Of a DNA stretch of 64,000 bases, positions 20,926 through 37,554 are shown one piece after another. Position 1 is the stretch's first letter; every line of letters starts with the position of its first letter. This DNA is from Alphaproteobacteria bacterium (lineage in GTDB: Bacteria; Pseudomonadota; Alphaproteobacteria; UBA7887). The translations under genes and the position numbers were made by a program. The notes beneath the pieces were generated by a model. It searched no databases, was not told the DNA's origin, and saw only the letters and a list, made by a program, of their open reading frames with translations. The stretch spans positions 4,512,001 through 4,576,000 of the forward strand of contig CBDCGL010000011.1 of assembly GCA_965216755.1 (NCBI GenBank), read 5' to 3'.

Positions 20926-23421
20926 TCAATCGGCAGAAGGCGGCGTCTGTGACAGGGCCAGTGGCGCGGCAGCCAGCGCCGGCGGAAAGTCTCCGATATG
21001 GTAGTTGTGGCATTCCGTGCAGCGATCGCCGGCCAGTTCATGCTTATGGCATGCAGCGCAGGTTGATTTGTCCAATGAACGGAAATTACTCGCGAATTGG
21101 GCGGGTTGGCGGTGGTCAAAACTGGCCATGTACGCTGCTGCCGGATCCAGGATGTGGCAAGTGAGGCATCCGGCCTCGTTCAACAGGCTGAAATGGGGGA
21201 CATGCGCGTAGACGCTGAATCGCTTGTCATTTGGCTGTGGCGGCACGGTCAGCCAATTGATGAGGAACCCGCCATTTTGGCCCTTGCGGTCGTCGACGCT
21301 GTGGCACTTGGTACAGGAGCCGACTGTTTTTGAGTTGGTGAGTAGTTGTGCCAGCGGTGCGCCAAGGGGATCAGCGCCGCCGATCATGCCGGACAGGTCA
21401 AGCCATGCGCGCATGAACCCGTCGGCATGATCGCCAGGTCGGTAATACAAGCCATAGTCTTGCCGATACCAGCCGCCAGCATTGCTCCAGGCTTCTGGGG
21501 CGACCGGCCTTAGCGCTTGCGGCAGCGGTGTCACGTCCACGTCCGCCACCGGCGCCGACGCGCGGTCGTTGCTGTCCGGCATGTCGCCCGCGTTGCCGTC
21601 CGAAAGGCTGATTTCATCGTCGTCTGCCAGCAGTCCTTCGTCCCCCAGTAGGTCGCCGTCGTTGCCCAGCAGGTCGCCACCGTCTGCTAGCAAATCATCG
21701 CCCAGCAAATCACCATCGTCCGCCAGCAGATCGTCGTCGAGCAGGCCGCCAAGGTCGCCATTGTCGGCTTCCGCGGTCGGTGTATCGAATAGGGTCTCGG
21801 CATCGTCAGCGGCGCCGTCGCTGTCGAGCAGGCCGCCAAGGTCCAGCTCTTCCGTTGTTTGGGCGGGCGTCTCGGCAAGGTCACCAGTCGCCTCCGGTTC
21901 CGACACGTGGCTGGCGATTTCCGAGGCCGTTGGCCCCATGACGATGTCGCCCGCCGCGTGGCGCGCCAACTCGGTGCCCAAGTCTGGAAACCACTCGCTT
22001 TGTGCCGCCAAGACGGCATCGGTTGGCAGCATGCCGATCAATGATGCGACTTGGTCACTTGTTAGCTGTCGCCCAGCCACTCGTGACAGTCGATCGGCAT
22101 ATGCGTCGTGGCCGTCGACGACAATTGACCCGAGCATTTTTTTGACGCCCCACGCGACGCGGGCGACGGCGGCCAATTGGTGGTCGTCTGCGTCCAACAA
22201 ATCGAGCAGGTCCAGCGTCGACACCTCGTCCAGAGCGTCGGCGACATCGGGGTCCGCGGCCAGTAGCACACGCACGAAGGGCGTGATCGGGCCGTCGGCA
22301 TAATAGGGCCAATGGCCGATCTCAACATTGCGGGCGTCGAGGGTCTGCAGGTCCAGACCCGGCAACGCAATAACCGGCAGTCCTTTGACACCCGCGCGGC
22401 CCTCGCCGGCGATTTGTTTGCCGTGGCACGCGCGGCAAGTTTGGTCGAAGTCCTTCACCAGCATGTAGGCTCCGCCCGTGTCGGGTTCATGGCAGCCGGT
22501 GCAGGCCGTTGGCGCGTCGACGGTGTCCGGTTCCCTAAAATGCTTACCGATATGACCGACATGGTCGAAAATAATCCGCGTTCGCCTTTGATAAGGAAAC
22601 GACTCAAACTGCGGATGACCCTGGACAAACGTATCAAATGCTCTTTCGTGACATGTGTGGCAGTGCAGGTTGGAAATCTCGTCCAAGGTATAGCGCTGCC
22701 CGTGATGCTCTCGATGACACGTTGAACAGGCCAAATCTTGGTCCTTCGGCTGTTGGCCGAATACGAACTTGGCCACTGTCGGCATAATTGAAACTTGCTG
22801 CGGTCGTGGCATGTTCTGCAAGCGGGTCGTGACCGGCTTCAATGTTTCCGGCGCCAAGCTGTGTGCTTTGGTCGCGTAGTTGCCAAGCCGATGGCACGCA
22901 AGACATGGCGCGCTGTCTTCCGCTGCGCTCCGCGGTAAGAACGCTGCCTGCAGCCAGCCAATAAGTCCGTGCTCGGAACCAGTGTGGCATCCGTCGCAGG
23001 TCGCCACGTCGCCATGTTGATAGGTCACTTCGCCGGGCACGACCACACGCTCCGCCAGGCGACCATTGAGCAGTAAGAGGATGGCACCAACGGTCAGGCA
23101 CACAAGCCACAGTGTTGTCAAACCGCGTCGGGCACGATCACTACGTTTGGGGACGCAGCGGTCTATCGGACGGGCGCAGCGACCATCAGGAAGCGGGCCG
23201 TCGGTGCAACGGCCGCCATATTGCGGTGCACGCGTGCACGACCATCGATCGTCGGTATTGAGTGGAATGCATTCAAAATCGGCCCGGCATTGGCCACGCA
23301 AATCCGGTCCGATCCGGCATGTGCGACCGTCTTGGGCGCGTCCGCAGACCCATGGCTGCGACGGCCGTTCATAAGCACTTTCGCGGTGACCAAACCGCTG
23401 CCAAAGGGATGACATACTCAC
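20926..23421 (-). CDS. Membrane-anchored decaheme c-type cytochrome with N-terminal Cys-rich domain
   Basis: Ten CxxCH motifs (CDGCH, CLACH, CSTCH, CHTCH, CTGCH, CRACH, CTKCH, CLTCH, CAACH, CTECH); one TM after an 8-Cys N-terminal segment; acidic DLL(G/A) repeat linker. Confidence 0.9.
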   Translation of the reverse strand: MSMSSLWQRFGHRESAYERPSQPWVCGRAQDGRTCRIGPDLRGQCRADFECIPLNTDDRWSCTRAPQYGGRCTDGPLPDGRCARPIDRCVPKRSDRARRGLTTLWLVCLTVGAILLLLNGRLAERVVVPGEVTYQHGDVATCDGCHTGSEHGLIGWLQAAFLPRSAAEDSAPCLACHRLGNYATKAHSLAPETLKPVTTRLQNMPRPQQVSIMPTVAKFVFGQQPKDQDLACSTCHREHHGQRYTLDEISNLHCHTCHERAFDTFVQGHPQFESFPYQRRTRIIFDHVGHIGKHFREPDTVDAPTACTGCHEPDTGGAYMLVKDFDQTCRACHGKQIAGEGRAGVKGLPVIALPGLDLQTLDARNVEIGHWPYYADGPITPFVRVLLAADPDVADALDEVSTLDLLDLLDADDHQLAAVARVAWGVKKMLGSIVVDGHDAYADRLSRVAGRQLTSDQVASLIGMLPTDAVLAAQSEWFPDLGTELARHAAGDIVMGPTASEIASHVSEPEATGDLAETPAQTTEELDLGGLLDSDGAADDAETLFDTPTAEADNGDLGGLLDDDLLADDGDLLGDDLLADGGDLLGNDGDLLGDEGLLADDDEISLSDGNAGDMPDSNDRASAPVADVDVTPLPQALRPVAPEAWSNAGGWYRQDYGLYYRPGDHADGFMRAWLDLSGMIGGADPLGAPLAQLLTNSKTVGSCTKCHSVDDRKGQNGGFLINWLTVPPQPNDKRFSVYAHVPHFSLLNEAGCLTCHILDPAAAYMASFDHRQPAQFASNFRSLDKSTCAACHKHELAGDRCTECHNYHIGDFPPALAAAPLALSQTPPSAD
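21615..21850 (-). repeat. Intragenic acidic D-L-L-(G/A)-D peptide repeats
   Basis: DLGGLLD occurs twice, then DDLLADDGDLLGDDLLADGGDLLGNDGDLLGDEGLLADDDE. Confidence 0.85.
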
Positions 23422-23424
23422 GGC

Positions 23425-24249
23425 TTACGAGAACGCATAGACCAGGACAATATGAACCAAGATGAGGATCAGAAGCACGGTGCTGACTGGCACGTGGACA
23501 AACTGCCAACGGCGCAACAAAGATTGCATCGCGTATTGAAAATCCAAGTCGTCTTTTGTGCGCACCAAATCGGCAAGCTGGTCCATCACGGCGCACTCGC
23601 CAGCGTCCAGATAACGTTCGAGGCCGCGCATTTGATTGAGCAACCGGGTGCGTGGTCGGCCGGACAGCATGGCGTGGCGCCAGAAATTTCGGGGCCGATC
23701 AAAAAAGCTATGCAACTGGTCGCTGTAATAATCCGCGATCGTCGTCGAGCGGGCGTCCTTAACAGAATTGATCGCCAGAGCTTCGGCTTGCGTCGCCAGT
23801 TTGCGCCGGTAGATCGGAATCCGTTCGTAAACGACATTCTCACCCCGCACAGACAGCCGGGGCGGCACGGCGCGGAACAGAAGCCAACCGACCAAACCGC
23901 TGGCGACGACGAAAGCAAAAGCAATGGCGAGAACGGTTTCGAACGGCCCGTCCGGTACTTGCCAGTCGACGTGCACGCCGAAGAGAAACGCACAGACCAA
24001 GCCGATATAGACGTGCAGTTGCAGCCAAGCGGACGACGAACCCAACGGCAAAAACGGCAACCGCCGGCGAATTTGATAGCAAGCCAAGAAGAGGATCGTC
24101 AGAAACAATGTCCAGCCGGTCAAGAATGATGGATTGCGCAGCGTCGATGCATAGATCGCGTGCACGCCGGCGAGTACGATCACGATCACAACAGCCGTCC
24201 CCGCATGCACCATTCGGCGCCTGGCAAAGGTGATCATCTGTGGATCCAA
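23425..24249 (-). CDS. Integral membrane protein, probable diheme b cytochrome (ferric-reductase-like TM domain)
   Basis: About 5 hydrophobic helices; two helices each carry H-x13-H (HVYIGLVCAFLFGVH; HVPVSTVLLILILVH). Confidence 0.75.
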   Translation of the reverse strand: MDPQMITFARRRMVHAGTAVVIVIVLAGVHAIYASTLRNPSFLTGWTLFLTILFLACYQIRRRLPFLPLGSSSAWLQLHVYIGLVCAFLFGVHVDWQVPDGPFETVLAIAFAFVVASGLVGWLLFRAVPPRLSVRGENVVYERIPIYRRKLATQAEALAINSVKDARSTTIADYYSDQLHSFFDRPRNFWRHAMLSGRPRTRLLNQMRGLERYLDAGECAVMDQLADLVRTKDDLDFQYAMQSLLRRWQFVHVPVSTVLLILILVHIVLVYAFS

Positions 24250-25946
24250 GCCATCAACTTGTCCGGTGTTCTGAGATCGATGCGAACCAAGGCATCATTC
24301 GGACACGCGCGCTGGCACGCGGGACCACCCAATTGATCGGCACAAAGGTCGCATTTGGTTGCCCGCTCGATGGGCGCATTGGTGGCCTGATCGATGACGA
24401 ATTCGCCAGCCCGATTACGGATGTTCACCAACCGAATATTATTGTAGGGGCACGCACTCGCACAGGTCCCACAACCGATGCATGTGTCGTCGTTGATCAC
24501 CACAGTGCCGCCCTCTGTATCGCGGTGGATCGCGCCGGTTGGACAGCCGATGAGGCAGACCGGATCGACGCAATGCATGCAGGCATTGGCGATCATGAAA
24601 TGATCATAGTGCGGGCCGTGGCGGACAAATCGCGGGTTGTTGCCATGCGCGGCGGCGCACGCGCGCACGCATTCGTCGCAGCGTGTGCACCGGTCGACGT
24701 CGATGACCATAGTCTGTGTGCCGTTAATAAACCGATTGTCGACCAAAAACTCCAGCATGGCCGACTCGATGCGCCCTTCGGACGTGCCACGCTGCCACGC
24801 CGATTGAACGCCGCTGCGGGTTTCAACCGGTTCCGGCAGCGCCGCGGCCGGCATGGTTGGCAAAATGTGGTCGGCGACCAGATCACCGGGGATGCGCAGC
24901 ACGTCGACATATCCTGTCGCGCGCATGGTGCCTTGGAATGAAATCTGCTGATCGTTACGCCAATTGTGGACGATTTCCCTCAGGCCGAACGTGCCCCCGG
25001 GGCCCAAATAGCCGACCGTGCGATGGCCGTGGTCGACCCGTTCGGTGACCCGCGCAAATCCCGACCGCACAATAATCAAGCTATCGGCGTGTTCATCTTC
25101 GCCAGCGATAATCGGCTCGCCGGCGAGCCTTTCAGCATGTGTCCGTTCGCCCGCTGCCTTGTAGGCCGTGTACCATTCGAAACTGCCATAAGAGGCAAAC
25201 TGCGTGCGCGGCGCAATCTCCGCGATTTGCCCGGGGGTCAGGTGGGAGAGCAGGGGTGTGTCGCGAAGCTGGGCCGCCAAACTGCGCTCGCGATATAGCT
25301 GATCAATCTGTTCACGAAACTTGCGATCGCGACGGCGGATATCACGCAGACCTTGCCATCGAATTTCCAGCAGCTCCGAATCGCCGTCGGCGTAGATCGT
25401 TGCCGTTCGAGGCGCGCGCGATATGGCGCCAATCTCGCCGAACATTTCGCCCGCGCCTATGAGGGCGGTCCGATGGTTCTTCGTCACTTGCGCCGGATCG
25501 GGCAACGCGACGCGGATATCGTCGTCACCGTCGCCACGGACAATGACTTGCTCGCGCCGTCCCAAGTCACGGACTTCCGGTTGGCCAGGGTTGTTCCAAA
25601 GCTGGCTGATCGCCGACCACATCCCCCGCCGACTCGCTTCTTGGCGACCCAACGCTTTGGCAGGTAGCCGTGGGCCAAGCACGACCCGCGCGGCACCGGT
25701 CAGCACAACAAACGCCGAATTGCCATAATCCTCGGCGCGCACGACAATGTCGCCATAGCTATAACTGCGAATGCGCGTGTCATTGCGGATGATATCGCGC
25801 AAAGGCGCTGTATCTGGGAAGCTTGACGGATCGACTTGGGCAAAGGGATCGTGCGCCAAAACGCGATCAATGTCGGCTTCCGACATCGACGTGCTAAACG
25901 GATTTTCCCAACGGTCCGGACGATGAATTTCTACCGGTCGCGCCAT
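24234..25946 (-). CDS. Cyclic-nucleotide-binding (2 domains) + 4x[4Fe-4S] ferredoxin (NrfC/DmsB-like) fusion
   Basis: GEMFGEIGAISRAPRTATI phosphate-binding cassette; second degenerate cNMP domain; CTRCDECVRAC, CMHCVDPVCLIGCP, CIGCGTCASACP, KCDLC...PACQRACP; no signal peptide. Confidence 0.9.
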   Translation of the reverse strand: MARPVEIHRPDRWENPFSTSMSEADIDRVLAHDPFAQVDPSSFPDTAPLRDIIRNDTRIRSYSYGDIVVRAEDYGNSAFVVLTGAARVVLGPRLPAKALGRQEASRRGMWSAISQLWNNPGQPEVRDLGRREQVIVRGDGDDDIRVALPDPAQVTKNHRTALIGAGEMFGEIGAISRAPRTATIYADGDSELLEIRWQGLRDIRRRDRKFREQIDQLYRERSLAAQLRDTPLLSHLTPGQIAEIAPRTQFASYGSFEWYTAYKAAGERTHAERLAGEPIIAGEDEHADSLIIVRSGFARVTERVDHGHRTVGYLGPGGTFGLREIVHNWRNDQQISFQGTMRATGYVDVLRIPGDLVADHILPTMPAAALPEPVETRSGVQSAWQRGTSEGRIESAMLEFLVDNRFINGTQTMVIDVDRCTRCDECVRACAAAHGNNPRFVRHGPHYDHFMIANACMHCVDPVCLIGCPTGAIHRDTEGGTVVINDDTCIGCGTCASACPYNNIRLVNIRNRAGEFVIDQATNAPIERATKCDLCADQLGGPACQRACPNDALVRIDLRTPDKLMAWIHR

Positions 25947-25967
25947 ACCAGACGAGGCCGCGCCGCG

Positions 25968-27020
25968 CTAGCGGGCTGGCTTACCCTTGTAGCTTTCCGG
26001 CGCGGGAAGCAGGGCATCGAGCCCGGCAAGGTCGGCGCCGTCATTGGATTCGGCAAATTGTCGTGCGGCGGCTTCGATCTCATCGGCGGCCGCGTTCAGC
26101 GCATCCGCGTTGTTCAGCTTGAGTTTGACGCTGCCCGCGACCGCCAGCATGGCGTCAACCTCGGCAATCGACGCGGCTTTGCCGATTTGCTGCAGCCGCT
26201 GAGCCGCGGTCTTTGCCCGTTTTGCCATTGCCTTTGCATAGTCGGCGTTGGCCGTCGCCTTGGCGACGCCGCGCAGGGCGAATGTCAGGTCCAGGGCGCG
26301 CCCGACGACATACATGACGCGCTTGCGCGCGTCAGTCGCCTCGCGATTGGCTTTGCCTTCGGAAAACCAAATATTGTGACGCACTTCGCCTTGCGACCAG
26401 GCAACGAGCTCAAAAGCGCTGCCAGCCGGGTGGCCGCCTTCATTGACGAGTTTTTCCTCTGGCACGGTATGGCAGCCATAGCAGTTCGATGCCCAATCGA
26501 CGATCCACAACGGCCGGATCAATCCGGCAGCCTCGACCGTTGCTAGTCGTTCCGCCTTATGTTCAGGTGTCTCCGATTCTGCGGTGACATCCTTGCCGCC
26601 AAAATCGCTGTGGGGATCATTCCAATCCTTGGCCGCGCCGTGGCACGATTCACAACTGATTCCGGCAATTGCTTTTGTTTCACCGTCTGAAACAGCTTCG
26701 GTGAAATGACAACTCAGACAAACGCTCTCGTCTTTGATGCGGCGCAGGCCCAGCTTGTCGGCGATTTCGCGGGCCTTGTCCTCGCGCGGCATGGTCGTAA
26801 AGGTCTTGGCGTGATGCGTCTCTCGCCACACTTCGACCTCTTCCTTATGGCACTCGCCACACGTGTCGGGCCCCAGCACCATGGCCGGATCAGTTGCCGC
26901 ACCCCCAGCCGCGGCCGGTGCGGCCCAAAGCAGCATCACACCGCCGGCAACGGCGGCTGCCGCGCTGGCAAGTTGATTGTCCATGCCAGGACTTACACTC
27001 AAGGACATCTTGACCGGCAT
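25968..27020 (-). CDS. Periplasmic tetraheme c-type cytochrome (c554/c552-like) with helical C-terminal domain
   Basis: Signal-peptide-like N-terminus; CGECH, CLSCH, CESCHG, CYGCH. Confidence 0.88.
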   Translation of the reverse strand: MPVKMSLSVSPGMDNQLASAAAAVAGGVMLLWAAPAAAGGAATDPAMVLGPDTCGECHKEEVEVWRETHHAKTFTTMPREDKAREIADKLGLRRIKDESVCLSCHFTEAVSDGETKAIAGISCESCHGAAKDWNDPHSDFGGKDVTAESETPEHKAERLATVEAAGLIRPLWIVDWASNCYGCHTVPEEKLVNEGGHPAGSAFELVAWSQGEVRHNIWFSEGKANREATDARKRVMYVVGRALDLTFALRGVAKATANADYAKAMAKRAKTAAQRLQQIGKAASIAEVDAMLAVAGSVKLKLNNADALNAAADEIEAAARQFAESNDGADLAGLDALLPAPESYKGKPAR

Positions 27021-27135
27021 TCGCTCGCAATCCTCCCATTGAGGCGCCAGTTGATTATGTTTGGCGCCATGACCTCGCCAGGCGAGAATAGCATACTCGT
27101 TGACGCCTTCGGAATCCGACTCCCCGTGTCAACAT

Positions 27136-28407
27136 TTACGCATCAAGAACCAAGTCGGTCTTGGGAATCGCGATGCATGTCAGGCACGTACCGGCTTTGA
27201 CCTCGGCGGTCGGCTCAGTCAGATAGGTGACTTCGCCCGTCCGGATTGCCGTCACACAGGTTCCGCAATTGCCGACCCGGCAGCCAAAATCTATGGGTAC
27301 GGTGTTGGCTTGCGCCAGATCCAAAAGCGATCCTGCCGCGCCAGTCCATTTCGCCGTGCGGTTTGAGCGTTCAAAACTCACGGCCAAAGGGGTCTCGTCT
27401 TTGTCGTCGGCGACACCGGGTGCAGCGGCGCCTTGGACGCTGGCCGCCGCAAACGCTTCGCGATGCACGCGATCGTCCGGAACGCCCCATTTTCGGAGAT
27501 CCCCGCTCACTTGGGTCATCATCGCGGGCGGCCCGCAGATAAAGAAATCGTAGTTGGACGAGGGCAGTGTGTCTTTCAGATGATCGATCGAGATATGGCC
27601 CTTCAGATCGTAATCGGACTCGCCGTCCAGTCCCGGCCGTGGGCTGCTATAGGCGACGGTGACGTGAATGTTTTCGTTATCCAGATCAAAATCGCGTAGG
27701 CGCTCTTTGGTAAGATGCTCCAAGCCATTGCGCACACCGTAGAAAACCCAAACTTCACGCTTGCTGCCTGTTTCCACAATCGCGTCGAGCATGCTCAATA
27801 TGGGCGTGATGCCGATGCCGCCGGCGATCAACACCAAAGGCGAGTTTTCCAGCGGATCGATCGTGAAGTTGCCGCTGGGCGCGATCACGTCGATCAGGTC
27901 GCCCGCGTGCATGCCCCGATGCAAATGATTGGAAACCAGCCCCTCCGGCGCCGTATCGTTCTTGGCCGGGGCGGCCAGTCGCTTGACAGTGATTTGATAC
28001 TCGTCCGGCTCCGGCGTCCATTGCGACAGTGAATAGCAGCGCACCACCGGCCGCGGCTGGTCTTTCATGGCAAACCGAAAGGTCAGGAACTGGCCGGGTC
28101 GGTACGGGGGCAGGGGGCGATGATCGTGAGGCACCAAGCGAAACGAGGCGATATTGTCCGCTTCCGGAACGACTTCCGAGATTTCGAACTTGCGATAACC
28201 GCTCCAGCCAAAATTGACCCGATCCGTTTCCCCCTGAGTGGTCGCGGCCGCGGCCATCACATTTTGCCTGAGCACTTCCAGGGACAAGCGCCGCCGGTCG
28301 CGTTCGAAGGTCGAGCGCCTGGCAGATTCGACCAGCATCATCGTGGCTTGCGCCAATACCAACGCGATGATCAAGGCACCGGCAATTTGAACCAGCAATG
28401 CCATCAC
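27136..28407 (-). CDS. Membrane-anchored FAD/NAD(P)H oxidoreductase with C-terminal [2Fe-2S] (FNR/PDR-like)
   Basis: RCYSLS FAD motif, GLVSNHLH, AGGIGITP, FICGPP, GCRVGNCGTC...C plant-type ferredoxin; N-terminal TM; AGGAG RBS before GTG 28407/ATG 28404. Confidence 0.92.
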   Translation of the reverse strand: MMALLVQIAGALIIALVLAQATMMLVESARRSTFERDRRRLSLEVLRQNVMAAAATTQGETDRVNFGWSGYRKFEISEVVPEADNIASFRLVPHDHRPLPPYRPGQFLTFRFAMKDQPRPVVRCYSLSQWTPEPDEYQITVKRLAAPAKNDTAPEGLVSNHLHRGMHAGDLIDVIAPSGNFTIDPLENSPLVLIAGGIGITPILSMLDAIVETGSKREVWVFYGVRNGLEHLTKERLRDFDLDNENIHVTVAYSSPRPGLDGESDYDLKGHISIDHLKDTLPSSNYDFFICGPPAMMTQVSGDLRKWGVPDDRVHREAFAAASVQGAAAPGVADDKDETPLAVSFERSNRTAKWTGAAGSLLDLAQANTVPIDFGCRVGNCGTCVTAIRTGEVTYLTEPTAEVKAGTCLTCIAIPKTDLVLDA

Positions 28408-28468
28408 GCGCGTGGCTCCTTGGTTGGTCTTGACGATGGGACGTTCACGGCAGCCAGACCGAGTAGAA

Positions 28469-29887
28469 CTAGAACTTAACCTGAATCTCGGTTCGCGCGC
28501 CAAAACCGGCGCCCTCTGTCTCGGTCATCGAGCCGAACAAATCCAATTGCCAAAACGCCTGATTGTGAATTTGCAATTGATAGCGGCCGCCCAGCGCAAA
28601 CGCGTCTGAGTCAGACCCGTCGGCTGATTTCCGCGCGCCAAACTCAAGCACCAATTGTTCACGGTTGTTTGGGACCAAGAACCATTGGTGGCCGACCGAA
28701 AACCCGATAACGTCCTTGGCGCGATTGCTGAGCGCCGAACCAAAACGGCCGAGGCGCTGCGACGCGAACAGGATTCCGGCGCGTCCCAGCGGCCCGCCGA
28801 CCTGCGGATCACGGGCGGCCATGGTGAATTCATCCAATGCTGCGAACGCGGTGGCGTAGAGAATGTTGTCCGTACCCAAGGGTGTCGTCGACACATCGGC
28901 GAATAACAGATAGCCGTCCTTGGCAGCACGCGTGTCGCCGTCGAATGCCTGCGAGGTCATGAAGCGAAACGACGATGTCCAAAGCCCGAAACGTTGTACC
29001 GCGCTGAGACCCAAATAGGCCGCGTCACCGCCATTGTCGTCGGACGCCACATAGATTGCGTCCAAAGCCACGGTGCTCTTGTAAAAATCCGCCTCGTTGA
29101 ACAGCCCAAACAATTGCGCGTTGCTGTCCACGTCACTGTCGCCGCGGCTCACCTCGCCCCAACCATAAAGCCCAGAGACCCGCAAGTTCGCGCCGCCGGG
29201 AACGGTCAGGGAATTGCGCACGATGCCAATCGAGTCGAGCGCGGTATCGTCGATCAGGATCCCTTGTTGATAGGAGATCGCCTGACGCCCGACCGCAAAG
29301 CCATAGTCGAGGGTGCCGGAATCGTCCCGGTCCAGGTCGGGAAACAGTTCGCCGAAATCGCCTTCGAAAAACAGGGTGCGCACGTTGCCGTTGAAGCTTT
29401 CAAACGAGCCGCGCTCTGAGTCCGGCCCCAGCGTATAGCCGGTGTAGTTGACGCCTTGTCGCAACGGGTTGATTCCCAACAGCAATCTTTCCGTGCCCGT
29501 GAGCTGCAGATTGGCAAACAGATCGAGCGAGTTGGCCCATTCGGTGATTGGCTTGCGATCACCGCGGTCGAAGCTCTGCAAAGCCGTACGATAGGTTCCA
29601 AAGACCCACAAGGACGGTCGCCAGACGGCGCCGGTTGGCAGTTCCCAGCCCGGCTCGATATTGCCGACTTCCAGGAACGGGTCGCCAAATATCACCAGTG
29701 GTTTCGCCTGTGGCGGCAGCTCATCGACGACGTAGGGTACGGGCTCATCGGGTAGACTACGGCCGTAGATGCTGACCGCCGCGTCAACGGACCCGCATTC
29801 GAACGCCACCCATCCCGCCGCTCCAGCGATCGCCCATGCTGTAAAGTGCCACCGTCGGCGACACCAATCGCCCACCCGTTCCGCCAT
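28469..29887 (-). CDS. Putative outer-membrane beta-barrel (porin-like)
   Basis: Signal-like N-terminus, alternating amphipathic beta strands, C-terminal EIQVKF (terminal Phe); lies between cytochrome genes. Confidence 0.72.
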   Translation of the reverse strand: MAERVGDWCRRRWHFTAWAIAGAAGWVAFECGSVDAAVSIYGRSLPDEPVPYVVDELPPQAKPLVIFGDPFLEVGNIEPGWELPTGAVWRPSLWVFGTYRTALQSFDRGDRKPITEWANSLDLFANLQLTGTERLLLGINPLRQGVNYTGYTLGPDSERGSFESFNGNVRTLFFEGDFGELFPDLDRDDSGTLDYGFAVGRQAISYQQGILIDDTALDSIGIVRNSLTVPGGANLRVSGLYGWGEVSRGDSDVDSNAQLFGLFNEADFYKSTVALDAIYVASDDNGGDAAYLGLSAVQRFGLWTSSFRFMTSQAFDGDTRAAKDGYLLFADVSTTPLGTDNILYATAFAALDEFTMAARDPQVGGPLGRAGILFASQRLGRFGSALSNRAKDVIGFSVGHQWFLVPNNREQLVLEFGARKSADGSDSDAFALGGRYQLQIHNQAFWQLDLFGSMTETEGAGFGARTEIQVKF

Positions 29888-29907
29888 TTGCGACCTCGAC
29901 GACGTTA

Positions 29908-31842
29908 TTATTCGATTTCAAACTCGACTATCTTACGAGCGGCGACCGTGTGTCCGTCAACCAGGGCGTCGCCGACCGATCGTGGGCTCATGTTGAAGTC
30001 GAAGCCGACATCTTGAATTGCGTGGATCAAGTTTATCGGCACCATGCCAACAACGATTTCGACCTCAGCCGTGTAGGGACCGTAAACAATTAGTTCTTCA
30101 CCCGGCACCGTATAGGCGGTGCGGCGGCTGCCGAGCGGTTCGATGCCGCGCTTGTGGATGCGCGCGCTAAGTGGCCGACCGGTCAGAATGGTCGACCGTG
30201 TCGCCGGGCGAACAAACGGCAGCACATCGAGTGAATAGTTGGCGGCCAAGACTTGCTCGCGTTCGCCGCCGCGATTGTTCAGGGTCACAAAAAACGATTG
30301 CAGGCTATACAGCTGATCATCCAGCGGCACATCGCCACTGAGCACCAATTGCGAATGGGAATCGCGCAGGTCGCCGTTGCTGTCCAGGTCGCCAGAGACG
30401 AACACGGGTTGATCATCGCTGTCATATACGGTCACCCGCAGCCAGACGAGACGTTCCGCAATAAAGCCGGTCGGCACATTGTGTCCGTCGGTCCCGTTCC
30501 TAATTTCGACGTTGAGGCGAATGCCGTTGCGATCAGCTTTTTCAATGATCACCTCGCCGATCTTGAAGCCGGCACTGAGTACTTCTTGGCGCTTCGCCTT
30601 GGCCCAGGCGAGCAGCTCGAATTGGTCATCAAGGATATCGCGCGCGTCATAGCGATCATCGATCGTGCGCCAGCGTTCCGGAAATGTGTAATCCTCCGGC
30701 ACGTTGTCTTCGAACGAATCAGTGCCCCAACCGGCCTCATAATCGAACGTCAGCCACTCCTCCAACGTGGCCATGCGCGCGGCTTCGACATTGTGCGGAA
30801 AGATCCCCGGATGCACGATTGAATGGTCCGGACCGGCGAAATAATGATTGGTCAACTTGCGCGGCTCTGTCGCCACGCCGCCGATCTCTGCCGCCGGCCC
30901 GTGTTCGTATCCGGACACCACGCCCTGCACCTTGCCCATATGGCAATCGTGGCACGTGGCGCCGCCATCGGCACCGCTATTGCGCAAATCGTTGGCCGGT
31001 GACGTCTTGAATTCACTAAATGCTTCTTCCAGTCGAAACCCGTTGGGCAGTGTCACATCGTGGCAGGTACCGCAAAAGCCCGGCTCGACCATCTGGAAAA
31101 AACGTTCGGCCTCGGTGTGGATCTTGCGACCCGGCTGGTCCGCGTCGGTGACCACTTTGTAACGATTCCGGTTGTCGAGGACCCGATTGAGTTCGTCACC
31201 CCCCGTTGGGCCGCGCACCGGCTTTAGGATGTCGCCTTGGTCGATGGCCATGCGACCACTGATCTTGCCATACGCTTGGCTGACACGATGACAGACCACG
31301 CAGGTGATGCCTTCGCGTGACGTGGGATGCCGGTCGAGATTGTTAGTGGCGATGCCTTCGCCGAGATTCATGCCCACCTGGTTGTGACAGCGGATGCAGA
31401 AGTCACCCACCGTGCCACTCAGGCGATCATAGCTAAATCTCTGCATGGCCATGTAAATTGGGCTCAGCTGGGCATAGGAATGTTGTGAGACGGACCACTC
31501 GCGATAGTGTTTCGGGTGGCAGGTCATGCAGGTCGTCGCCGAGGGGTAGCGATCTTCCAGAAACAGGGCTTCGTGGGCCGCGGCCGCAGTCGAACCCGCT
31601 AGCGCACCCGGTTCGTCTTCAGCTTCAGTATCAGCGTCGGCCGTCGGTTCATCGAGTGGTACTTCGTCGTCGCCGAGCAAGTCGTCGCCACCCAAAAGGT
31701 CGTCGCCGCCGAGCAAGTCATCATCTGCAAGCAGCGTGTCGTCGCCAAGTAGGTTGTCATCTTGCGCAAGACTTGGCCCGGCCAAAGTAAGCGCCGCCGC
31801 CATGCCGATCGCCATAGCAACTCGCGAGAACCTGATTTGCAT
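29908..31842 (-). CDS. Exported pentaheme c-type cytochrome with C-terminal beta-rich domain
   Basis: Signal peptide (…GPSLA); CMTCH, CIRCH, CVVCH, CGTCH, CHDCH; GHNVPTG motif; N-terminal acidic DDLLGG repeats. Confidence 0.88.
   Translation of the reverse strand: MQIRFSRVAMAIGMAAALTLAGPSLAQDDNLLGDDTLLADDDLLGGDDLLGGDDLLGDDEVPLDEPTADADTEAEDEPGALAGSTAAAAHEALFLEDRYPSATTCMTCHPKHYREWSVSQHSYAQLSPIYMAMQRFSYDRLSGTVGDFCIRCHNQVGMNLGEGIATNNLDRHPTSREGITCVVCHRVSQAYGKISGRMAIDQGDILKPVRGPTGGDELNRVLDNRNRYKVVTDADQPGRKIHTEAERFFQMVEPGFCGTCHDVTLPNGFRLEEAFSEFKTSPANDLRNSGADGGATCHDCHMGKVQGVVSGYEHGPAAEIGGVATEPRKLTNHYFAGPDHSIVHPGIFPHNVEAARMATLEEWLTFDYEAGWGTDSFEDNVPEDYTFPERWRTIDDRYDARDILDDQFELLAWAKAKRQEVLSAGFKIGEVIIEKADRNGIRLNVEIRNGTDGHNVPTGFIAERLVWLRVTVYDSDDQPVFVSGDLDSNGDLRDSHSQLVLSGDVPLDDQLYSLQSFFVTLNNRGGEREQVLAANYSLDVLPFVRPATRSTILTGRPLSARIHKRGIEPLGSRRTAYTVPGEELIVYGPYTAEVEIVVGMVPINLIHAIQDVGFDFNMSPRSVGDALVDGHTVAARKIVEFEIE
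31660..31765 (-). repeat. Intragenic DDLLG(G) tandem repeat
   Basis: QDDNLLGDDTLLADDDLLGGDDLLGGDDLLGDDE immediately after the signal peptide. Confidence 0.85.
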
Positions 31843-31984
31843 CGGAAAATTCCCCGTTCCCTGACGTTTCCGAGCTTGCAACTTTGCCCTGAAACCGATC
31901 GACTCTCCACCACGTCTCATTATACGGCGATCGTGTTGAACCCGACCACCTCAACGCCATGTTAGGGGGCATGGCGCGCCTATC

Positions 31985-32000
31985 TATGAACAAGGTCACA
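31985..32000. promoter_or_regulatory. CRP/FNR-family-like box in the divergent promoter of the cytochrome operon
   Basis: TATGA-acaagg-TCACA, 9/10 match to TGTGA-N6-TCACA. Confidence 0.5.
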
Positions 32001-32134
32001 GCTGGAAGTCGCGGGCCGACGTCACAATATGGCCAGCTTGGCGGGCTAAATTGCACCATTCGCAGCGGTCGCCTGTCGATCGCGTATTGCGTATGCTGCT
32101 GCCAAATGACAACCAAAATGGGAGGCGCACAGTC

Positions 32135-32848
32135 ATGACTACCGGGCGTTTTGCACTCGCCTTTGTGGCGCTATCCGCCGTGATGCTGATCGATGCCGTG
32201 GCCGCACAGGCCGAGACGACATTTGTCTTGAGGATTCGGAATGTCAGCGAGGCCAATACCATGGCGCTCAGCGACGGCACGCGCGAGGCCGCGTTGTTGT
32301 CGTGGGGTGTTTATGCGATTCACGATAGCGGCACGCCGATCTTCACACCCGGTCAAGCGGCAGGAGGCGCGGGACTGGAACCTTTGGCGGAAGACGGCGT
32401 TGCGGACCAGTTGGCCGAATCGCTCCGGTCCGCGGCCGGTGTCAAGACAGCCGGCGTTCTGAAAGCTCGTTTGGTCGATGGCGTTCCGGTCATTCCCGCG
32501 GGCGGCCTGATGCGCGCGGTGGCCAAAGCCAATCCGGGCGACCGTTTGTCTTTCGCCGTGATGTTGGAACAATCCAATGACTTGTTCTATGCATTCGCTG
32601 AAACAGGGGTCCCTTTGTTTGATGATTCAGGCGCGCCGATTAGCGCTGATTTGACCCCGCAGATCATGCTTTGGGACGCCGGCACCGAGGTCAATCAGGA
32701 TCCCGGATTGGGGCCGGACACGGGCAACAACGAGCAAGAGCTGAACCAAGGCCCCGACGAAGGTGGTGTCGTGCGACTGGTGGACGACGGCTTTACCTAT
32801 CCGGCGATCGCCAATGTAATCAAGCTGACGGTTGAGCCGCGCGAATAG
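32135..32848 (+). CDS. Secreted spondin-N-domain protein
   Basis: Signal peptide; GLEPLAEDG, LSFAVMLEQSNDLF, WDAGTEVNQ. Confidence 0.85.
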   Translation: MTTGRFALAFVALSAVMLIDAVAAQAETTFVLRIRNVSEANTMALSDGTREAALLSWGVYAIHDSGTPIFTPGQAAGGAGLEPLAEDGVADQLAESLRSAAGVKTAGVLKARLVDGVPVIPAGGLMRAVAKANPGDRLSFAVMLEQSNDLFYAFAETGVPLFDDSGAPISADLTPQIMLWDAGTEVNQDPGLGPDTGNNEQELNQGPDEGGVVRLVDDGFTYPAIANVIKLTVEPRE

Positions 32849-35800
32849 GGACCGCGCCAGCCTGCAATTGGTGGAGCAGGTCGGCCGCACCAATCAAGTC
32901 CGGGCTGGTGAAACCTTCGCTAAACCAGTCGTAAACGGGCTTCAGTACGCAAATTGCGGCTGGGGTTTCACCTTGGGCGTGGCGTAAACGGGCGAGGGAC
33001 GTCGCGGCACGAAGTTCAAGCGACTTCTCGCCCTGTTCACGCGCGCTTTGCAGTGCGCTGCATAAGTCCTTTTTCGCCGCGTCGATGACAGAGTTGGGAA
33101 GGACACCACGCGTGCCCGCGGCCAATCGCAGTTCGCCGCGCAATCGGTAGAGTTCGGGCGCGATGGCCCGGCCGCCTTTGCCCGTTAAGCGGTCCAGCCC
33201 TTGCACAATCGCATCGTGCGCGGCGTCGTAACGACCGGCGCTGCACAGTGCTGTGGCTCGCGACGCAGAATAGAATGTTGACGGACCGCGTTGCCACATG
33301 GGTGCACCGGCTTCGAAGCCTCTGTCGATTTCGGCCAGGCCTGCCTCGATGTCGCCGGTTTCGACCATCGCCCAACCGCGATGGATCATGCTGTGGACGC
33401 GCCAGGTTGGGAAGTTGTGCTGTGTTGAGATAGCCAACGAGCGTTCGGCACGCGCCTTTAGCACATCCCACTGGCCCAACCGGGCATAGACCGATCCGCC
33501 GACGCTGAGAGCAAACGCTAGGCTAAACGGGTGGCCAATATGCTCTGCGGCCTCAAGGGCTGAATCCGCCGCCCGCGCGGCTTGATCAGGGTAGCCCAAA
33601 TACCATAGCACCAAAGCCAATACAGAGCGGCATACAACGCCGAGATCATTGAGTTGCGACCCGAGGATCTGACCGGCCTCGCTGGGTCGGTACATCAGTG
33701 AAGCACGCTCCAAATAGGCACGCGCTTTGACAATTTCGCCGTGATCATACAGGCACACACCGACAGCCGTATTGGCCGCCAGCGTGATTTCCGAGTCATC
33801 GACGCGCTCAGATAACGCCATGAGCCGTTCGGCATAGTGACGGGCCTCGCGCGCCCGTCCCGTGCTCAAATTGTGGCTATAAAAGCCAAGCAATGCGCGC
33901 GCTGTCTGCCGGTCATCGCCGAGTTCTTCGGCCAAAGCCAAAACGCGATCCAGGGATAGTCGAACCTGCGGCGCCGCGTAGCCGTGCGACGCGGCCAGCG
34001 CACCGGCACGCAGCGATCGTAAGCGCAGTTCCATGCATTTTTCGGCGCGACCCGAAGGCAACGTTTCCAGCCAGCCAAGACCTTTTTCCGTCTCGCTCAG
34101 CGCTTCGGCCATGGCGGCACTGCGCACGCTGCGTTCTGCGGCGCGGATGCAGTAGGTGAGCGCTTTGTCGAGCAAGCCGGCCGCCGCGTAGTGTCGGGCG
34201 ACGGTGCCCGGCGTCGCCTCGGCGATTCCAGGAAATTTCGTGGCCAGTGTGTCACCGATCGTGTGGTGATATTGCTGGCGTTTGCGTCTAAGCAGCGATT
34301 CGTAGGCGACGTCATGGATCAAGGCATGCCGGAAAACGTAAGACTCATCGGCGGTCGTTCGCCGTTTCGAAATGATGCCCGCGTTCACAAGCTGCGCAAG
34401 GGCGCCGCGCAATGCCGGTTCGGCCAGGGATGCGACGGATGCCAAGACATCGAAATTGAAGGTTCGACCGATCACCGACGCCAGCTGGGCGACATCTTTT
34501 GCGGCGCCGAGACCGTCAAGGCGTGCCATAAGCGAATCCTGCAGGGTCTCGGGGACGGCCAATACCGGATGTCTGTCGTTGTTGTCAGCGGATTCGGGGT
34601 CCTGTTCGGGATCACGCTGCAACAACATGCGCGTGACTTCCTCGAGAAATATGGGGACACCATCGGCGCGTTTGACAATTTTCGCGATGATCTCGGCGGG
34701 CAATCGCGCGGCACCTTCGATACCGTTGACGATCGCCGTAGCCTGATCGTTGTCCAGCCGTTTAAGGGGCAAATGCGCTACGTTCGGCAAATAGTGCCAG
34801 GGCGATTCATAGTCTGCGCGATGGGCGATCAACAGCAATATGCGGTGCGCAGGCGCCAGTTCGATAACGCGCTCAAAGAAGGCCGCCGTCGACGGGTCGA
34901 TCCAGTGGGCATCTTCCAGCACAATGAGCACCGGCTTTCGCGCGGCGATCGCCAACAATAGCGCGCACAGGCTCTCTAGCTTGCGTTCCTTCTGGTCAAT
35001 GCCGCTTGTCGCGGGCACTGCGAAGCGATCGTCAACCGGTACGGACAGCAACGCCGCAAACGCCGGCAAATGCGTTTCCACATCCAGTCCGAAGTGGCTC
35101 AACATCCGTTCCAGGCGCGCCTGCTTCTCCCCAACTTTCATTTCACGCGAGAATCCAAGACGCCGTTCCAAAGCGCGGATCAGCGGATGAAACGCGGTTG
35201 CGCTATGGTAAGTTGAGCAATAATGACGCAGCCAACTAAATTCTTGCGCTGAAAACTGCGCCCGCACGGCCGCAATAACGCGGGATTTGCCGATCCCAGG
35301 ATCACCAGTCAGTATGATCGTGCCGCCACGTCCTTCTTGCGTGCGGTCCCACGCTTGCGCGATCGCCTCAATTTCATGTGTGCGGCCGACCAACGGCGTC
35401 AGCGCACGGCCGACGGCGTCGAGACGGGTTGCGACATCCAGGCTTCCGTGCACCTCAAAGATCGGCATGGGTGCGTCAACGCCTCGCAAATCTTGCGATC
35501 CGCGGCCGACACAGTCGAAATATCCGGCGATCAGGCGATGGGTAGCCGCACTGACAAACACCGTATTTGGTGCAGCGGCGGCCTGGATGCGTGCGGCAAT
35601 ATTGGGGGTACCGCCAATGGCATCTTCCGAATTGAGCACGTCCGCGGTGTGCTCCTGACCGACAACAACGAGGCCGGAGTGGATGCCGACGCGGACCGAC
35701 AAGCCGGCGTCGTGATCCAGGTCCGCAACAACGTCGATGAGTTCCAATCCGGCTCGGACCGCCCGCTGCGCATCATCTTCGTGGGCGCTTGGATAACCGA

Positions 35801-36140
35801 AATAGACCAGGATCCCGTCGCCATAGAACTGGGCGACATAGCCCTCGTGCCCAGCGACGACACGGTTAGCCGTGGCACGATAGGTGCCCATGATTTCACG
35901 ATAGTCCTCTGGGTCCACGCTTTGTGACAGCGCGGTCGAGCCGACCAAATCGCAAAACATGACAGTTAAGTGGCGTCGTTCCGCGCCGCCACGTCTCGGA
36001 ACCGGGCGCGCGCCAGCGTCCGATGGGTGGCGCGCGGCGTCTGCCCCGGAGACCGTACCGTCCAGCCGGTTGCCGCATTGGCCGCAGAACCGGAAACGCG
36101 GATCATTTGGATTGTCAAAGCCGCAATGGCCACATTTCAT
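32820..36140 (-). CDS. Class III adenylate/guanylate cyclase with double zinc ribbon, AAA/STAND ATPase and TPR domains
   Basis: CGHC/CGQC ribbon; VMFCDLVGST, YGDG, VRVGIHSG, NIAARIQ; GDPGIGKSR Walker A; LEDAHWID; C-terminal TPR region. Confidence 0.92.
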   Translation of the reverse strand: MKCGHCGFDNPNDPRFRFCGQCGNRLDGTVSGADAARHPSDAGARPVPRRGGAERRHLTVMFCDLVGSTALSQSVDPEDYREIMGTYRATANRVVAGHEGYVAQFYGDGILVYFGYPSAHEDDAQRAVRAGLELIDVVADLDHDAGLSVRVGIHSGLVVVGQEHTADVLNSEDAIGGTPNIAARIQAAAAPNTVFVSAATHRLIAGYFDCVGRGSQDLRGVDAPMPIFEVHGSLDVATRLDAVGRALTPLVGRTHEIEAIAQAWDRTQEGRGGTIILTGDPGIGKSRVIAAVRAQFSAQEFSWLRHYCSTYHSATAFHPLIRALERRLGFSREMKVGEKQARLERMLSHFGLDVETHLPAFAALLSVPVDDRFAVPATSGIDQKERKLESLCALLLAIAARKPVLIVLEDAHWIDPSTAAFFERVIELAPAHRILLLIAHRADYESPWHYLPNVAHLPLKRLDNDQATAIVNGIEGAARLPAEIIAKIVKRADGVPIFLEEVTRMLLQRDPEQDPESADNNDRHPVLAVPETLQDSLMARLDGLGAAKDVAQLASVIGRTFNFDVLASVASLAEPALRGALAQLVNAGIISKRRTTADESYVFRHALIHDVAYESLLRRKRQQYHHTIGDTLATKFPGIAEATPGTVARHYAAAGLLDKALTYCIRAAERSVRSAAMAEALSETEKGLGWLETLPSGRAEKCMELRLRSLRAGALAASHGYAAPQVRLSLDRVLALAEELGDDRQTARALLGFYSHNLSTGRAREARHYAERLMALSERVDDSEITLAANTAVGVCLYDHGEIVKARAYLERASLMYRPSEAGQILGSQLNDLGVVCRSVLALVLWYLGYPDQAARAADSALEAAEHIGHPFSLAFALSVGGSVYARLGQWDVLKARAERSLAISTQHNFPTWRVHSMIHRGWAMVETGDIEAGLAEIDRGFEAGAPMWQRGPSTFYSASRATALCSAGRYDAAHDAIVQGLDRLTGKGGRAIAPELYRLRGELRLAAGTRGVLPNSVIDAAKKDLCSALQSAREQGEKSLELRAATSLARLRHAQGETPAAICVLKPVYDWFSEGFTSPDLIGAADLLHQLQAGAVPIRAAQPSA

Positions 36141-36270
36141 ATTTGCTGATTCCGACCCAACGCAGTGTACCTGCCAGTCCGTGCCAGATACGCAATTGGT
36201 GCCTCTATTTCAAGGCGATGCCGATGATCGTAAGATGACAATCCAGTTCCCGATCGACGTCGGACTTGGG

Positions 36271-37410
36271 TTAGGCGGCGGGTTCCGCATCGAAAGTTTG
36301 TAAGTCGGTATTGCCGAGGCCGAGATAAAGTGGCGCCGCGTGGCCGCGATAGATGCTCACCTTGGCGTTGAAAACGGTCCGACGGTGGCCGTGTTTATCC
36401 GAGACGCGATAGGACTTGACATTGAAGGATTGGCTGTCGAGCCGCTCGCCGGTCAAATACGCCTTGATCGCGGAGATTTGTTCACCAGCAAGTGTCACAT
36501 CCATCAAGCGGTCAAGTTGCTCTTGTGCGCGGCCCATAAAACTGGTCGTTGCCATCGGCGTCGGCGATCCGGCCCCGCTGTCGTCCGGGCGTTCGAAGCT
36601 CCCGATCAAGATCTGTCCGGCCAGGGCTTTTTGAACCATCCGTGCGAGTGTGATTGTCAGGTCACCGACGATGAAGCCATTCATTGATGGGTTGAGTCCG
36701 TCAGCCTGGTAATACTCGTAGTGGCTGCCAATGTGAAACGACGTTCGCAACACGGGCGTCGTGTTGGGTCGACCCTTGGCCATCGCCAGCGCGTTGTCGG
36801 CCAAAATCAGCATCATCAGATAGAATAGGTTGACGTCGGCCTCGATGCCGGTGTCGCGGTTCCAAACATAGAAGCCGTCGCCGGTCGTCGATCGGCCCAG
36901 GTCGATGGGCAGATCGTAAGCCATGGCTTTGCTCTGGGCGACGTTGATGCTGTACGACAGACTGTTGAGTAGGGTGACCTGTTCCAGTGGTGAATGCAGC
37001 GAGAAGCCGACGATGTCGAACAAGATCGCGGCCCGGTGTTCTGACTTGGTGACACTGTAGCGGCGCACAAGCGTATCGATCTCGGTCGACGCCGCCACGC
37101 CGCCGAGGGGCGCGGACGGCAGCTCGATCGCTGTCGGCTCTATGCCGCCATGGGTGGCGAGACGATCGAATTGCGCATCGCCGAGTTGGTGGCTTTCCGA
37201 CAGGATTTCTGCGTGCGCGTCGATCAACGACGGCAGCATGAATTGCGGCAGCACCAGAAGGTCGATGCCGTGCGGCGCCGGCCGCCAGCCGACAATCAAG
37301 TTACGGCCCAATTTCCAGATGGCATTGAGCGCTTGGTCGAGCTGGCGCAGATAGTCGCCCGAGGCGCCCACACTGAGCGCGGCCGAAACTGAAGACAGGC
37401 GGGCCGTCAT
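36271..37410 (-). CDS. Divergent class III nucleotide cyclase-like protein
   Basis: ILFDIVGFS and TTGDGFYV (two metal-binding Asp), LRTSFHIG, IVGDLTITLARM, AGQILI. Confidence 0.68.
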   Translation of the reverse strand: MTARLSSVSAALSVGASGDYLRQLDQALNAIWKLGRNLIVGWRPAPHGIDLLVLPQFMLPSLIDAHAEILSESHQLGDAQFDRLATHGGIEPTAIELPSAPLGGVAASTEIDTLVRRYSVTKSEHRAAILFDIVGFSLHSPLEQVTLLNSLSYSINVAQSKAMAYDLPIDLGRSTTGDGFYVWNRDTGIEADVNLFYLMMLILADNALAMAKGRPNTTPVLRTSFHIGSHYEYYQADGLNPSMNGFIVGDLTITLARMVQKALAGQILIGSFERPDDSGAGSPTPMATTSFMGRAQEQLDRLMDVTLAGEQISAIKAYLTGERLDSQSFNVKSYRVSDKHGHRRTVFNAKVSIYRGHAAPLYLGLGNTDLQTFDAEPAA

Positions 37411-37554
37411 CTACATCTGGTGATCATGTTTCGGGATCCATCCCATATATTGCGGTATTGGCGCGTACGTTTTGTCCTGCGCCATGCCACAGCAGAGAAT
37501 ATAAGCCGGCCAGGAAGACCACCCAGTGTGGCGCCCCGGCGTCACGCCGGCCGT

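Follow-up and report, generated by a model that had tools for sequence, protein, structure and literature searches.

The ptdABCDEFG genes were named as a seven-gene cluster of unknown function (Elbon, Stewart and Glass, bioRxiv 10.1101/2023.11.21.568154), and the Ptd complex is described in the same preprint as present in many phyla of marine and saline bacteria and as highly transcribed in oxygen-deficient zones. Among nucleotidyl cyclases, Rv0386 of Mycobacterium tuberculosis is a cyclase/STAND/TPR protein whose Gln-Asn pair is reported to give adenylyl and guanylyl cyclase activity (bioRxiv 10.1101/2024.03.06.583649). Genes resembling both lie close together in the 64,000-nucleotide stretch analyzed here (the window; contig CBDCGL010000011.1, positions 4,512,001 to 4,576,000, of the 5.0 Mb alphaproteobacterial genome GCA_965216755.1, hereafter G000), where a gene for a cyclase/STAND/TPR protein, here called CycSTAND, is found upstream of a redox operon. 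This operon has a gene order and domain content identical to those of the published ptd cluster, including the cyclic-nucleotide-binding domains of PtdE. The published cluster, as described in the preprint, has no cyclase among its seven genes, whereas the cyclase genes of the window are neighbors beyond an opposite-strand gene. The CycSTAND gene is a conserved companion of the ptd operon in its clade. Other genomes and individual loci carry G- and L-codes, respectively. The open reading frames (ORFs) of the window were scanned against Pfam, NCBIfam, and PADLOC, giving the following features (cNMP, cyclic nucleotide monophosphate):

20926..31920, minus strand, ptdABCDEFG operon (Pfam/NCBIfam domains; names from bioRxiv 10.1101/2023.11.21.568154)
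20926-23421, minus strand, ptdG, large multihaem cytochrome
23425-24249, minus strand, ptdF, small membrane protein
24234-25946, minus strand, ptdE, two cNMP-binding domains plus 4Fe-4S clusters
25968-27020, minus strand, ptdD, tetrahaem-type cytochrome
27136-28503, minus strand, ptdC, FAD/NAD/2Fe-2S reductase
28469-29887, minus strand, ptdB, no family match, in the published porin slot
29908-31920, minus strand, ptdA, multihaem cytochrome with a C-terminal extension
32051..32848, plus strand, spondin-domain gene (NF038123, 1.1e-29), probable signal peptide, likely start near 32135
32820..36140, minus strand, CycSTAND, 1106 residues, Zn-ribbon / class III cyclase / STAND (AAA_16) ATPase / TPR
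34833..35396, minus strand, AAA_16 / STAND NTPase domain of CycSTAND, residues 249-436, P-loop GDPGIGKS read from the translation
35478..35972, minus strand, cyclase catalytic domain of CycSTAND, residues 57-221 (PF00211)

The original prediction had described two class III cyclase genes upstream of and co-oriented with the redox operon, separated from it only by a spondin gene. Both ORFs, CycSTAND and a 379-residue neighbor here called F379, were present where it had placed them, on the same minus strand as the operon, and the spondin gene was the sole gene between CycSTAND and ptdA, so that orientation and spacing held. A shared transcript is not implied, since the spondin gene is encoded on the plus strand, convergent with CycSTAND (29-nt overlap of the 3' ends) and divergent from ptdA; read-through from the cyclase genes into ptdA is therefore not expected, and the cyclases would have their own transcription. 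A scan of positions 31700-38600 revealed no promoter-like sites and 9 terminator-like sites versus 8.3 in shuffled sequence, and the gap between F379 and CycSTAND displayed neither a promoter-like site nor a convincing minus-strand terminator-like site.

Comparative genomic analysis identified PtdE in 14 of the 41 genomes of the near-relative set (G000 counted in) and a CycSTAND-spondin pair upstream of ptdA also in G003, G010, and G016, which belong to two other genera of the same family. The window CycSTAND was the best G000 match, with a margin and reciprocally, for the genes of G010 (750 vs 624 bits), G003 (577 vs 498 bits), and G016 (142 vs 85 bits). A maximum-likelihood tree, made by quick search only and with the G016 gene excluded as too short, placed CycSTAND in one clade with its G003 and G010 counterparts (SH-aLRT 99) and left the 14 other G000 paralogues outside it. 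Comparison of the window ORFs at positions 1-52000 with the G003 and G010 contigs (E<=1e-15) returned matches only for CycSTAND through ptdG, over a range that extended beyond CycSTAND by 9.7 kb on its upstream side and beyond ptdG by 14-17 kb. As both flanks differ and only this segment matches, the conserved unit is exactly CycSTAND-spondin-ptdABCDEFG.

Neither CycSTAND nor the spondin gene was identified in the 11-14 kb upstream of ptd in G366, G153, G193, G012, and G001. The G002 genome, lacking a ptd match, contained 28 CycSTAND paralogue matches, the best being a contig-edge fragment nearer to other G000 paralogues (462 vs 446 bits), and a G013 candidate cut at a contig edge preferred the window CycSTAND narrowly (580 vs 553 bits). 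The spondin gene was divergent beside ptdA in five genomes (G000, G003, G010, G016, and G203; loci including L001, L002, L011, and L014). Two wider collections were also searched, a wide genome set of 80 ptd loci that spans many phyla, with at most 10 kb of flank per locus, gathered with the PtdA alignment as query (more than 539 relatives exist), and a metagenome replicate set of 80 ptd loci out of more than 539 relatives; spondin was found in 1/80 genome loci (L037, the G016 contig) and 0/80 metagenome loci. The spondin-domain protein, which looks secreted, may serve the Ptd complex as an accessory restricted to this clade.

CycSTAND scored above the cut-offs of the class III cyclase model PF00211 (3.7e-19; 69.5 bits, cut-off 21.9), AAA_16 (1.6e-24; 87.8 bits, cut-off 32.6), and TPR_12 (5.8e-13; 49.3 bits, cut-off 30.1), its P-loop NTPase domain being followed by repeats as in a STAND NTPase with TPRs. 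An N-terminal CxxC-x12-CxxC motif was visible in the translation, with Zn-ribbon models under their cut-offs (DZR, 17.3 vs 27.3; DUF7577, 21.4 vs 28). In class III cyclases, two Asp residues bind the catalytic metals and an Asn and an Arg act on the transition state. CycSTAND matched 49 cyclase sequences in the PDB at E<=0.001, and its alignment to CyaC (1wc0) and Cya2 (2w01) displayed both metal Asp residues, the Asn, and the Arg in the motifs FCDLVGST, YGDG, and PNIAAR. The G003 orthologue retained the metal Asp residues, Asn, and Arg, and the G010 fragment retained the Asn and Arg. From these residues, CycSTAND is probably an active class III nucleotidyl cyclase. The Lys or Glu that specifies the purine is lacking, leaving the substrate uncertain: Gln occupies the position of the CyaC Lys and Cya2 Glu, and Asp that of the CyaC Thr, with Ser at this second specificity position in the G003 and G010 orthologues.

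Two other affiliations were considered and rejected. The best full-length model for CycSTAND was the TOMM kinase/cyclase fusion TIGR03903, whose positions 261-1266 of 1267 aligned to the cyclase, ATPase, and TPR regions. However, CycSTAND scored 562.4 bits against an equivalog cut-off of 705.75 and misses the N-terminal kinase (the first 260 positions), and no TOMM genes were seen near CycSTAND among the window ORFs and library scans. A Pycsar or defense function was set aside as F379 had no PADLOC match, CycSTAND matched PycC models solely over the generic cyclase domain (best 4.7e-14), and Pfam recognized no Pycsar-type effector gene at 32-42 kb of the window.

A candidate receiver for the cyclase product is encoded within the ptd operon. 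The first cNMP domain of PtdE carries the sequence FGE-x5-R-x-PR-[TS]-A in 50 of 60 homologues, which we take to be the phosphate-binding cassette of cNMP domains with its Glu and Arg, while the second domain is degenerate in all 60 homologues examined. The cassette was kept at every locus with a co-oriented upstream gene scored as a cyclase where PtdE could be seen (L058, L079, L086, and L108). Receivers are scarce in G000, with 10 cNMP-domain matches in 9 proteins versus 33 cyclase matches.

Variation in PtdE and in the cluster as a whole was also observed. The remaining 10 of the 60 PtdE sequences, from Acidobacteriota, Rhodothermales, and relatives, have GWPQS in place of PR[TS] (L075, L078, L081, L088, L091, L092, L098, L103, L110, and L111), and PtdE of this type may bind no cNMP or another ligand. 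The ptdE gene was absent, with ptdD directly followed by ptdF, in L038, L076, L083, L084, L096, and L097 (a gammaproteobacterium, Nitrospirales, and Phycisphaeraceae); among these, the Nitrospira-type loci have only a short ptdC-like piece and the Phycisphaeraceae loci have no ptdC match, and the five genomes searched (all but that of L096) contained 0-2 cyclase matches or candidates each. Gene orders included ABCDEFG, DEFGABC, and two oppositely oriented halves (varied orders in L018, L022-L032, L057, L061, L063, L069, L080, L082, L090, L100, L102, L109, L112, and L114), and some loci held ptdAB only or two ptdAB pairs (L066, L115, and L116). Elsewhere in G000, on contig C11, a cNMP-domain gene (385-residue frame; match at 2560225-2560473) lies about 2 kb from a cyclase gene (685-residue frame; match at 2562287-2562805), possibly a second local cyclase-receiver pair.

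Literature searches found nothing linking cyclases to ptd, "ptdABCDEFG" occurring only in the naming preprint, and nothing further of relevance on extracellular electron transfer or multihaem proteins with cNMP-binding domains or adenylate cyclase. The words "cyclase" and "spondin" do not occur in the main text of that preprint, whose Figure 4 and Tables S7 and S8 may show such neighbors.

G000 has 33 PF00211 matches, 15 of which lie in open frames of 1039-1161 residues, and an 11-kb operon in this genome would have a probability of about 18% (about one genome in six) of lying within 10 kb of at least one cyclase. Given this density, the single adjacency in the window is not beyond chance. Cyclases beside ptd in other lineages were identified with a hidden Markov model (HMM) built from the 33 cyclase domains of G000, with matches then checked against Pfam. 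The model matched 7 of the 80 wide genome loci, L037 among them, and the following upstream genes were recognized:

L079, Thermoanaerobaculia, dCache-HAMP-cyclase, immediately upstream of ptdA, co-oriented
L106, Hyphomicrobiales, dCache-cyclase, immediately upstream of ptdA, co-oriented
L108, SAR324, 7TMR-DISM-cyclase, immediately upstream of ptdA, co-oriented
L103, metagenome-assembled genome labeled Bacteroidetes, SCO4226-like-cyclase, upstream of ptdA, divergent, two genes off
L066, Rhodospirillales, cyclase, past a second, oppositely oriented ptdAB pair

The gaps between cyclase and ptdA at L079, L106, and L108 were about 230-400 nt. Only loci whose sequence extended 3 kb or more ahead of ptdA were counted (62 genome and 32 metagenome loci). 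This leaves two cyclase-positive loci outside the 62, L037 and L086, the latter having a cyclase fragment close upstream of ptdA. Expected values were derived from each genome's own cyclase number; for 31 of the 62 genomes, searched at E<=1e-30, this number is a candidate count serving as an upper bound. The loci are not phylogenetically independent, and the P values given here ignore kinship. Upstream cyclases were observed at 5 of the 62 genome loci versus 1.44 expected (P 0.016). For cyclases immediately upstream and co-oriented (within 3 kb, same strand), a class defined after the first sample had been seen, 3 were observed versus 0.23 expected (P 0.0016). Genome and metagenome loci combined gave 6 versus 2.13 expected (P 0.02), and 4 versus 0.40 in the narrow class (P 0.0008). 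The single metagenome hit, L152, has a dCache cyclase gene, a glutamine cyclotransferase gene (3751-4659), and ptdA in succession on one strand, spaced by 40 and 73 nt; its cyclase is a full-length distant relative (27% identity) of the L106 cyclase. A CHD-like/kinase/TPR gene at L058 was excluded from the counts, having been matched by our own HMM only (1.8e-12) and missed by PF00211.

Further cases came from the class-wide sample of 401 genomes. Among its ptdDEFGABC-type clusters, a cyclase-TM2 gene points away from ptdD in G282 and G401, which belong to the same genus, and a cyclase lies convergent after ptdC in G360 and G243; a PF00211 match also lies close to the ptd cluster of G174 by coordinates. 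The association of cyclases with ptd is rare (about 5-8% of clusters), recurrent, and positionally consistent, involves non-orthologous cyclases, and has modest statistical support. The original prediction had turned on the frequency of cyclases near homologous operons, which exceeded expectation in the genome loci without the replicate being significant alone.

The second gene, F379, belongs to a different gene block:

36141..36270, gap between CycSTAND and F379, 130 nt
36271..37410, minus strand, F379, 379 residues, N-terminal domain at about residues 20-115 plus a divergent class III cyclase-fold domain at residues 117-354
37673-38374, plus strand, cyclophilin-like gene (PF04126, 1.6e-34), between the Hpt and F379 genes, which are on the other strand
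38384-38905, minus strand, Hpt (Pfam)
38964-39503, minus strand, REC (Pfam)
39647-40444, minus strand, class II aldolase (Pfam)

The order aldolase-REC(-REC)-Hpt-F379 was kept in G002, G004, G006, and G013 with F379 orthologues of 56-63% identity, and the block was partly kept in G010 and G003, where the aldolase gene remains next to F379. The cyclophilin-like gene occupies the same place in G006 and G003. No CycSTAND followed the block in G002, G004, and G013, in which the DNA downstream of F379 was examined. An F379 profile matched 8 of the 41 related genomes (G000 included) but not 8 of 13 PtdE-positive relatives, 2 of 7 F379-positive relatives had no PtdE match, and the two genes were on different contigs in all five relatives having both. 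In the class-wide sample, F379 was found in 28/401 genomes, PtdA in 22/401, and both in 6, with a shared contig in G000 only; the F379 profile had no match beside ptd in any of the 80 genome and 80 metagenome loci. F379 was predicted to take part in supplying the ligand of PtdE, a role that is unsupported, as the gene belongs to the aldolase-REC-Hpt block and adjoins ptd in no other locus; it should be dropped from the proposed ptd circuit.

In distant genomes, a gene for a pentapeptide-repeat protein adjoins F379 homologues in 8 of 20 loci (L124, L128, L129, and L131-L135), on both sides in L134 and L135. These proteins are mostly about 400 residues long, the L131 gene being a 124-residue ORF, and one more gene of this type lies ahead of the dCache cyclase in L106. 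No literature joining pentapeptide-repeat proteins with class III cyclases was found. In locus L117 of the unrelated genome G209, a gene for a cyclase-AAA_16 protein of 1257 residues (333-4103) and an F379 homologue (6013-7128) are 2 kb apart, the former upstream; this was the only other place where CycSTAND-like and F379-type genes were seen together.

F379 matched no family in Pfam, NCBIfam, or PADLOC, and its family profile gave only chance matches (E>=1) against PDB sequences. An AlphaFold2 model built from 32 family members (predicted local distance difference test, pLDDT, 86.9) matched class III catalytic domains in Foldseek (E 5.3e-9, probability 1.00) and in VIA (Z 15.6, root-mean-square deviation 2.7 Å, 176 aligned of 184 residues, over residues 117-352), the top matches of both searches all being cyclase catalytic domains. 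For the class III domains 3et6, 2w01 (Cya2), and 1wc1 (CyaC), values were Z 14-15.6 and 2.7-3.1 Å over 176-186 aligned residues. Like canonical class III cyclases, F379 appears to carry the two metal Asp residues, which are invariant in its family, as are an Arg within the GDx..xAR helix and a Lys further on; unlike them, it escapes PF00211 and carries an extra N-terminal domain. Residues D132, G177-D178-G179, R257, and K339 were invariant in 32/32 family sequences. By motif and a weak hhalign alignment, the Asn corresponds to Ile253, the Lys/Glu position to Ser/Thr174, and the Asp/Thr position to Phe/Tyr246; hhalign against the 33 cyclase domains of G000 (probability 12%, 52 columns) served only to place the GDx..xAR motif.

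Relatives of F379 numbered 2107 at E<=0.001 among 8000 candidates scored, every named one being "hypothetical". In a protein atlas, F379 fell in unnamed clusters only, the nearest named cluster being Guanylate_cyc (0.91). A C-terminal receiver domain was present in 2 of 120 listed relatives (P0038 and P0062), which fits the REC-Hpt genes adjoining F379. By its modeled fold, F379 is cyclase-like and a member of a large unnamed family. The description of both genes as class III cyclases was therefore borne out for CycSTAND, by PF00211 and its residues, while no sequence model identifies F379 as a cyclase and its assignment is by fold alone.

Our reading, held tentatively and at somewhat under an even chance, is that two independent blocks, CycSTAND-spondin-ptdABCDEFG and aldolase-REC-Hpt-F379, would abut by happenstance and that the CycSTAND product would be read by PtdE. 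By analogy with STAND proteins, the TPR region of CycSTAND would sense a ligand or partner and its NTPase would drive oligomerization, so that the N-terminal cyclase domains meet as a catalytic dimer. The product would most likely be cyclic AMP (cAMP), with purine specificity possibly relaxed because of the Gln at the Lys/Glu position. The first cNMP-binding domain of PtdE would read this product, and electron flow through the Ptd porin-cytochrome conduit would fall under second-messenger control. In other lineages, the same slot is occasionally taken by membrane-bound cyclases that have Cache or 7TMR-DISM domains as periplasmic sensors, and F379 would be a divergent cyclase-fold enzyme that goes with a phosphorelay instead of ptd. 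For CycSTAND, the link from cyclase to PtdE is the most economical reading, albeit one slightly readier to fail than to hold; the claim that a cyclase supplies the ligand of the cNMP-FeS protein in a local circuit is partly supported in its case by the conserved block, the recurrence, and the PtdE cassette. Several observations weigh against this link. The opposite-strand spondin gene parts CycSTAND from the operon, and in G203, from another family, spondin-ptdA is kept with no cyclase in 6.5 kb upstream. No upstream cyclase was found at 57 of 62 genome and 31 of 32 metagenome loci, and the metagenome replicate was not significant alone, with 1 observed versus 0.69 expected on any strand and 1 versus 0.17 in the narrow class (P 0.16). 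The post hoc definition of that class, the non-independence of loci, and the upper-bound expected values were each counted on the same side, as were the lack of PF00211 matches in the PtdE-bearing genome of L058 and the disagreement in predicted specificity residues among ptd-adjacent cyclases (Lys/Thr in most of them, but Glu/Gly in L079 and Gln/Asp in CycSTAND itself).

Some of these points also favor neutral adjacency, a serious rival that we regard as possible but doubtful, in which a CycSTAND paralogue landed by ptd in the family ancestor and signals elsewhere, with the cases in other phyla due to chance. All four block-keeping genomes come from one family and are rich in cyclases (PF00211 matches of 33 in G000 and 48, 23, and 79 in G010, G003, and G016), which confirms the caveat of the original prediction that cyclase-STAND-TPR genes are multi-copy; in G000 the 15 frames of similar length count in the same direction. 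The CycSTAND orthologues also diverge fast, with 38-41% identity compared with 70-74% for PtdA. Against neutral adjacency, CycSTAND stayed in place while the flanks were reshuffled on both sides, it forms an orthologous lineage separate from 14 paralogues, the combined counts exceed expectation both overall and immediately upstream, and the sensor architectures differ among the upstream cyclases. Regulation of ptd by CycSTAND could instead act through a Crp/Fnr-type factor or another cNMP-binding protein, without direct binding to PtdE. A precedent is the cAMP-Crp control of anaerobic respiration genes in Shewanella, eight further cNMP-domain proteins are encoded in G000, and a conserved block would fit transcriptional control equally; the block nevertheless contains no cNMP-domain regulator and the PtdE cassette is well conserved inside the operon, and we consider this route unlikely. 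It is most improbable that CycSTAND and F379 act together in feeding PtdE, for instance as a heterodimeric pair like mammalian C1/C2. The two genes share a strand across the 130-nt gap, F379 has metal-binding residues but apparently lacks the base and ribose residues present in CycSTAND, and the gene pair of G209 resembles theirs. However, CycSTAND has its own full catalytic set, G003 has no F379 within 9.7 kb upstream of its CycSTAND orthologue, and the absence of CycSTAND after the block in G002, G004, and G013 and the separate contigs in all relatives with both genes also argue against such a pair.

The Ptd complex has no known function or regulation, and a cyclase kept with its operon offers a concrete, testable handle. 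In a broader and rather unlikely extension of the PtdE link, Ptd conduits would be gated post-translationally by cAMP or cGMP, a dedicated adjacent cyclase responding to an environmental or redox cue and the PtdE iron-sulfur subunit switching transmembrane electron flow. The cyclase would be of the STAND/TPR type here and of the periplasmic Cache or 7TMR-DISM type in some Acidobacteriota, Hyphomicrobiales, and SAR324; as a separate part of the same proposal, F379 would found a new family of cyclase-fold enzymes, as yet without a name and over 2000 sequences strong, that produces a non-canonical nucleotide signal under REC/Hpt control. If true, it would be unusual for a second messenger to act directly on a respiratory or extracellular electron conduit and not on the transcription of its genes. 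F379 represents a large unnamed family in which the fold of a cyclase and a conserved metal site go together with an apparently altered substrate pocket, and it is a candidate for new nucleotide-signal chemistry.

A local cyclase-receptor circuit exists in Sinorhizobium meliloti, an alphaproteobacterium with many cyclases, where CyaD1, CyaD2, and CyaK act with the Crp-like receiver Clr. As in that system, a cyclase gene is kept beside the gene of a possible cNMP receiver at the ptd locus; the difference is that an electron-transfer subunit with iron-sulfur clusters, not a transcription factor, is the candidate here. With the Rv0386-type class IIIc cyclases, as far as they are described in the preprint cited above, CycSTAND shares its domain order, in which a class III cyclase domain near the N terminus comes before a P-loop STAND ATPase and TPRs, and a Gln in place of the Lys that specifies the purine. 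It differs from them in its additional N-terminal Zn-ribbon motif, in its second specificity residue, which is Asp (Ser in the orthologues) and not Asn, in that Pfam found no LuxR helix-turn-helix output domain such as the Rv0386 type has, and in its genomic context, a cytochrome operon.

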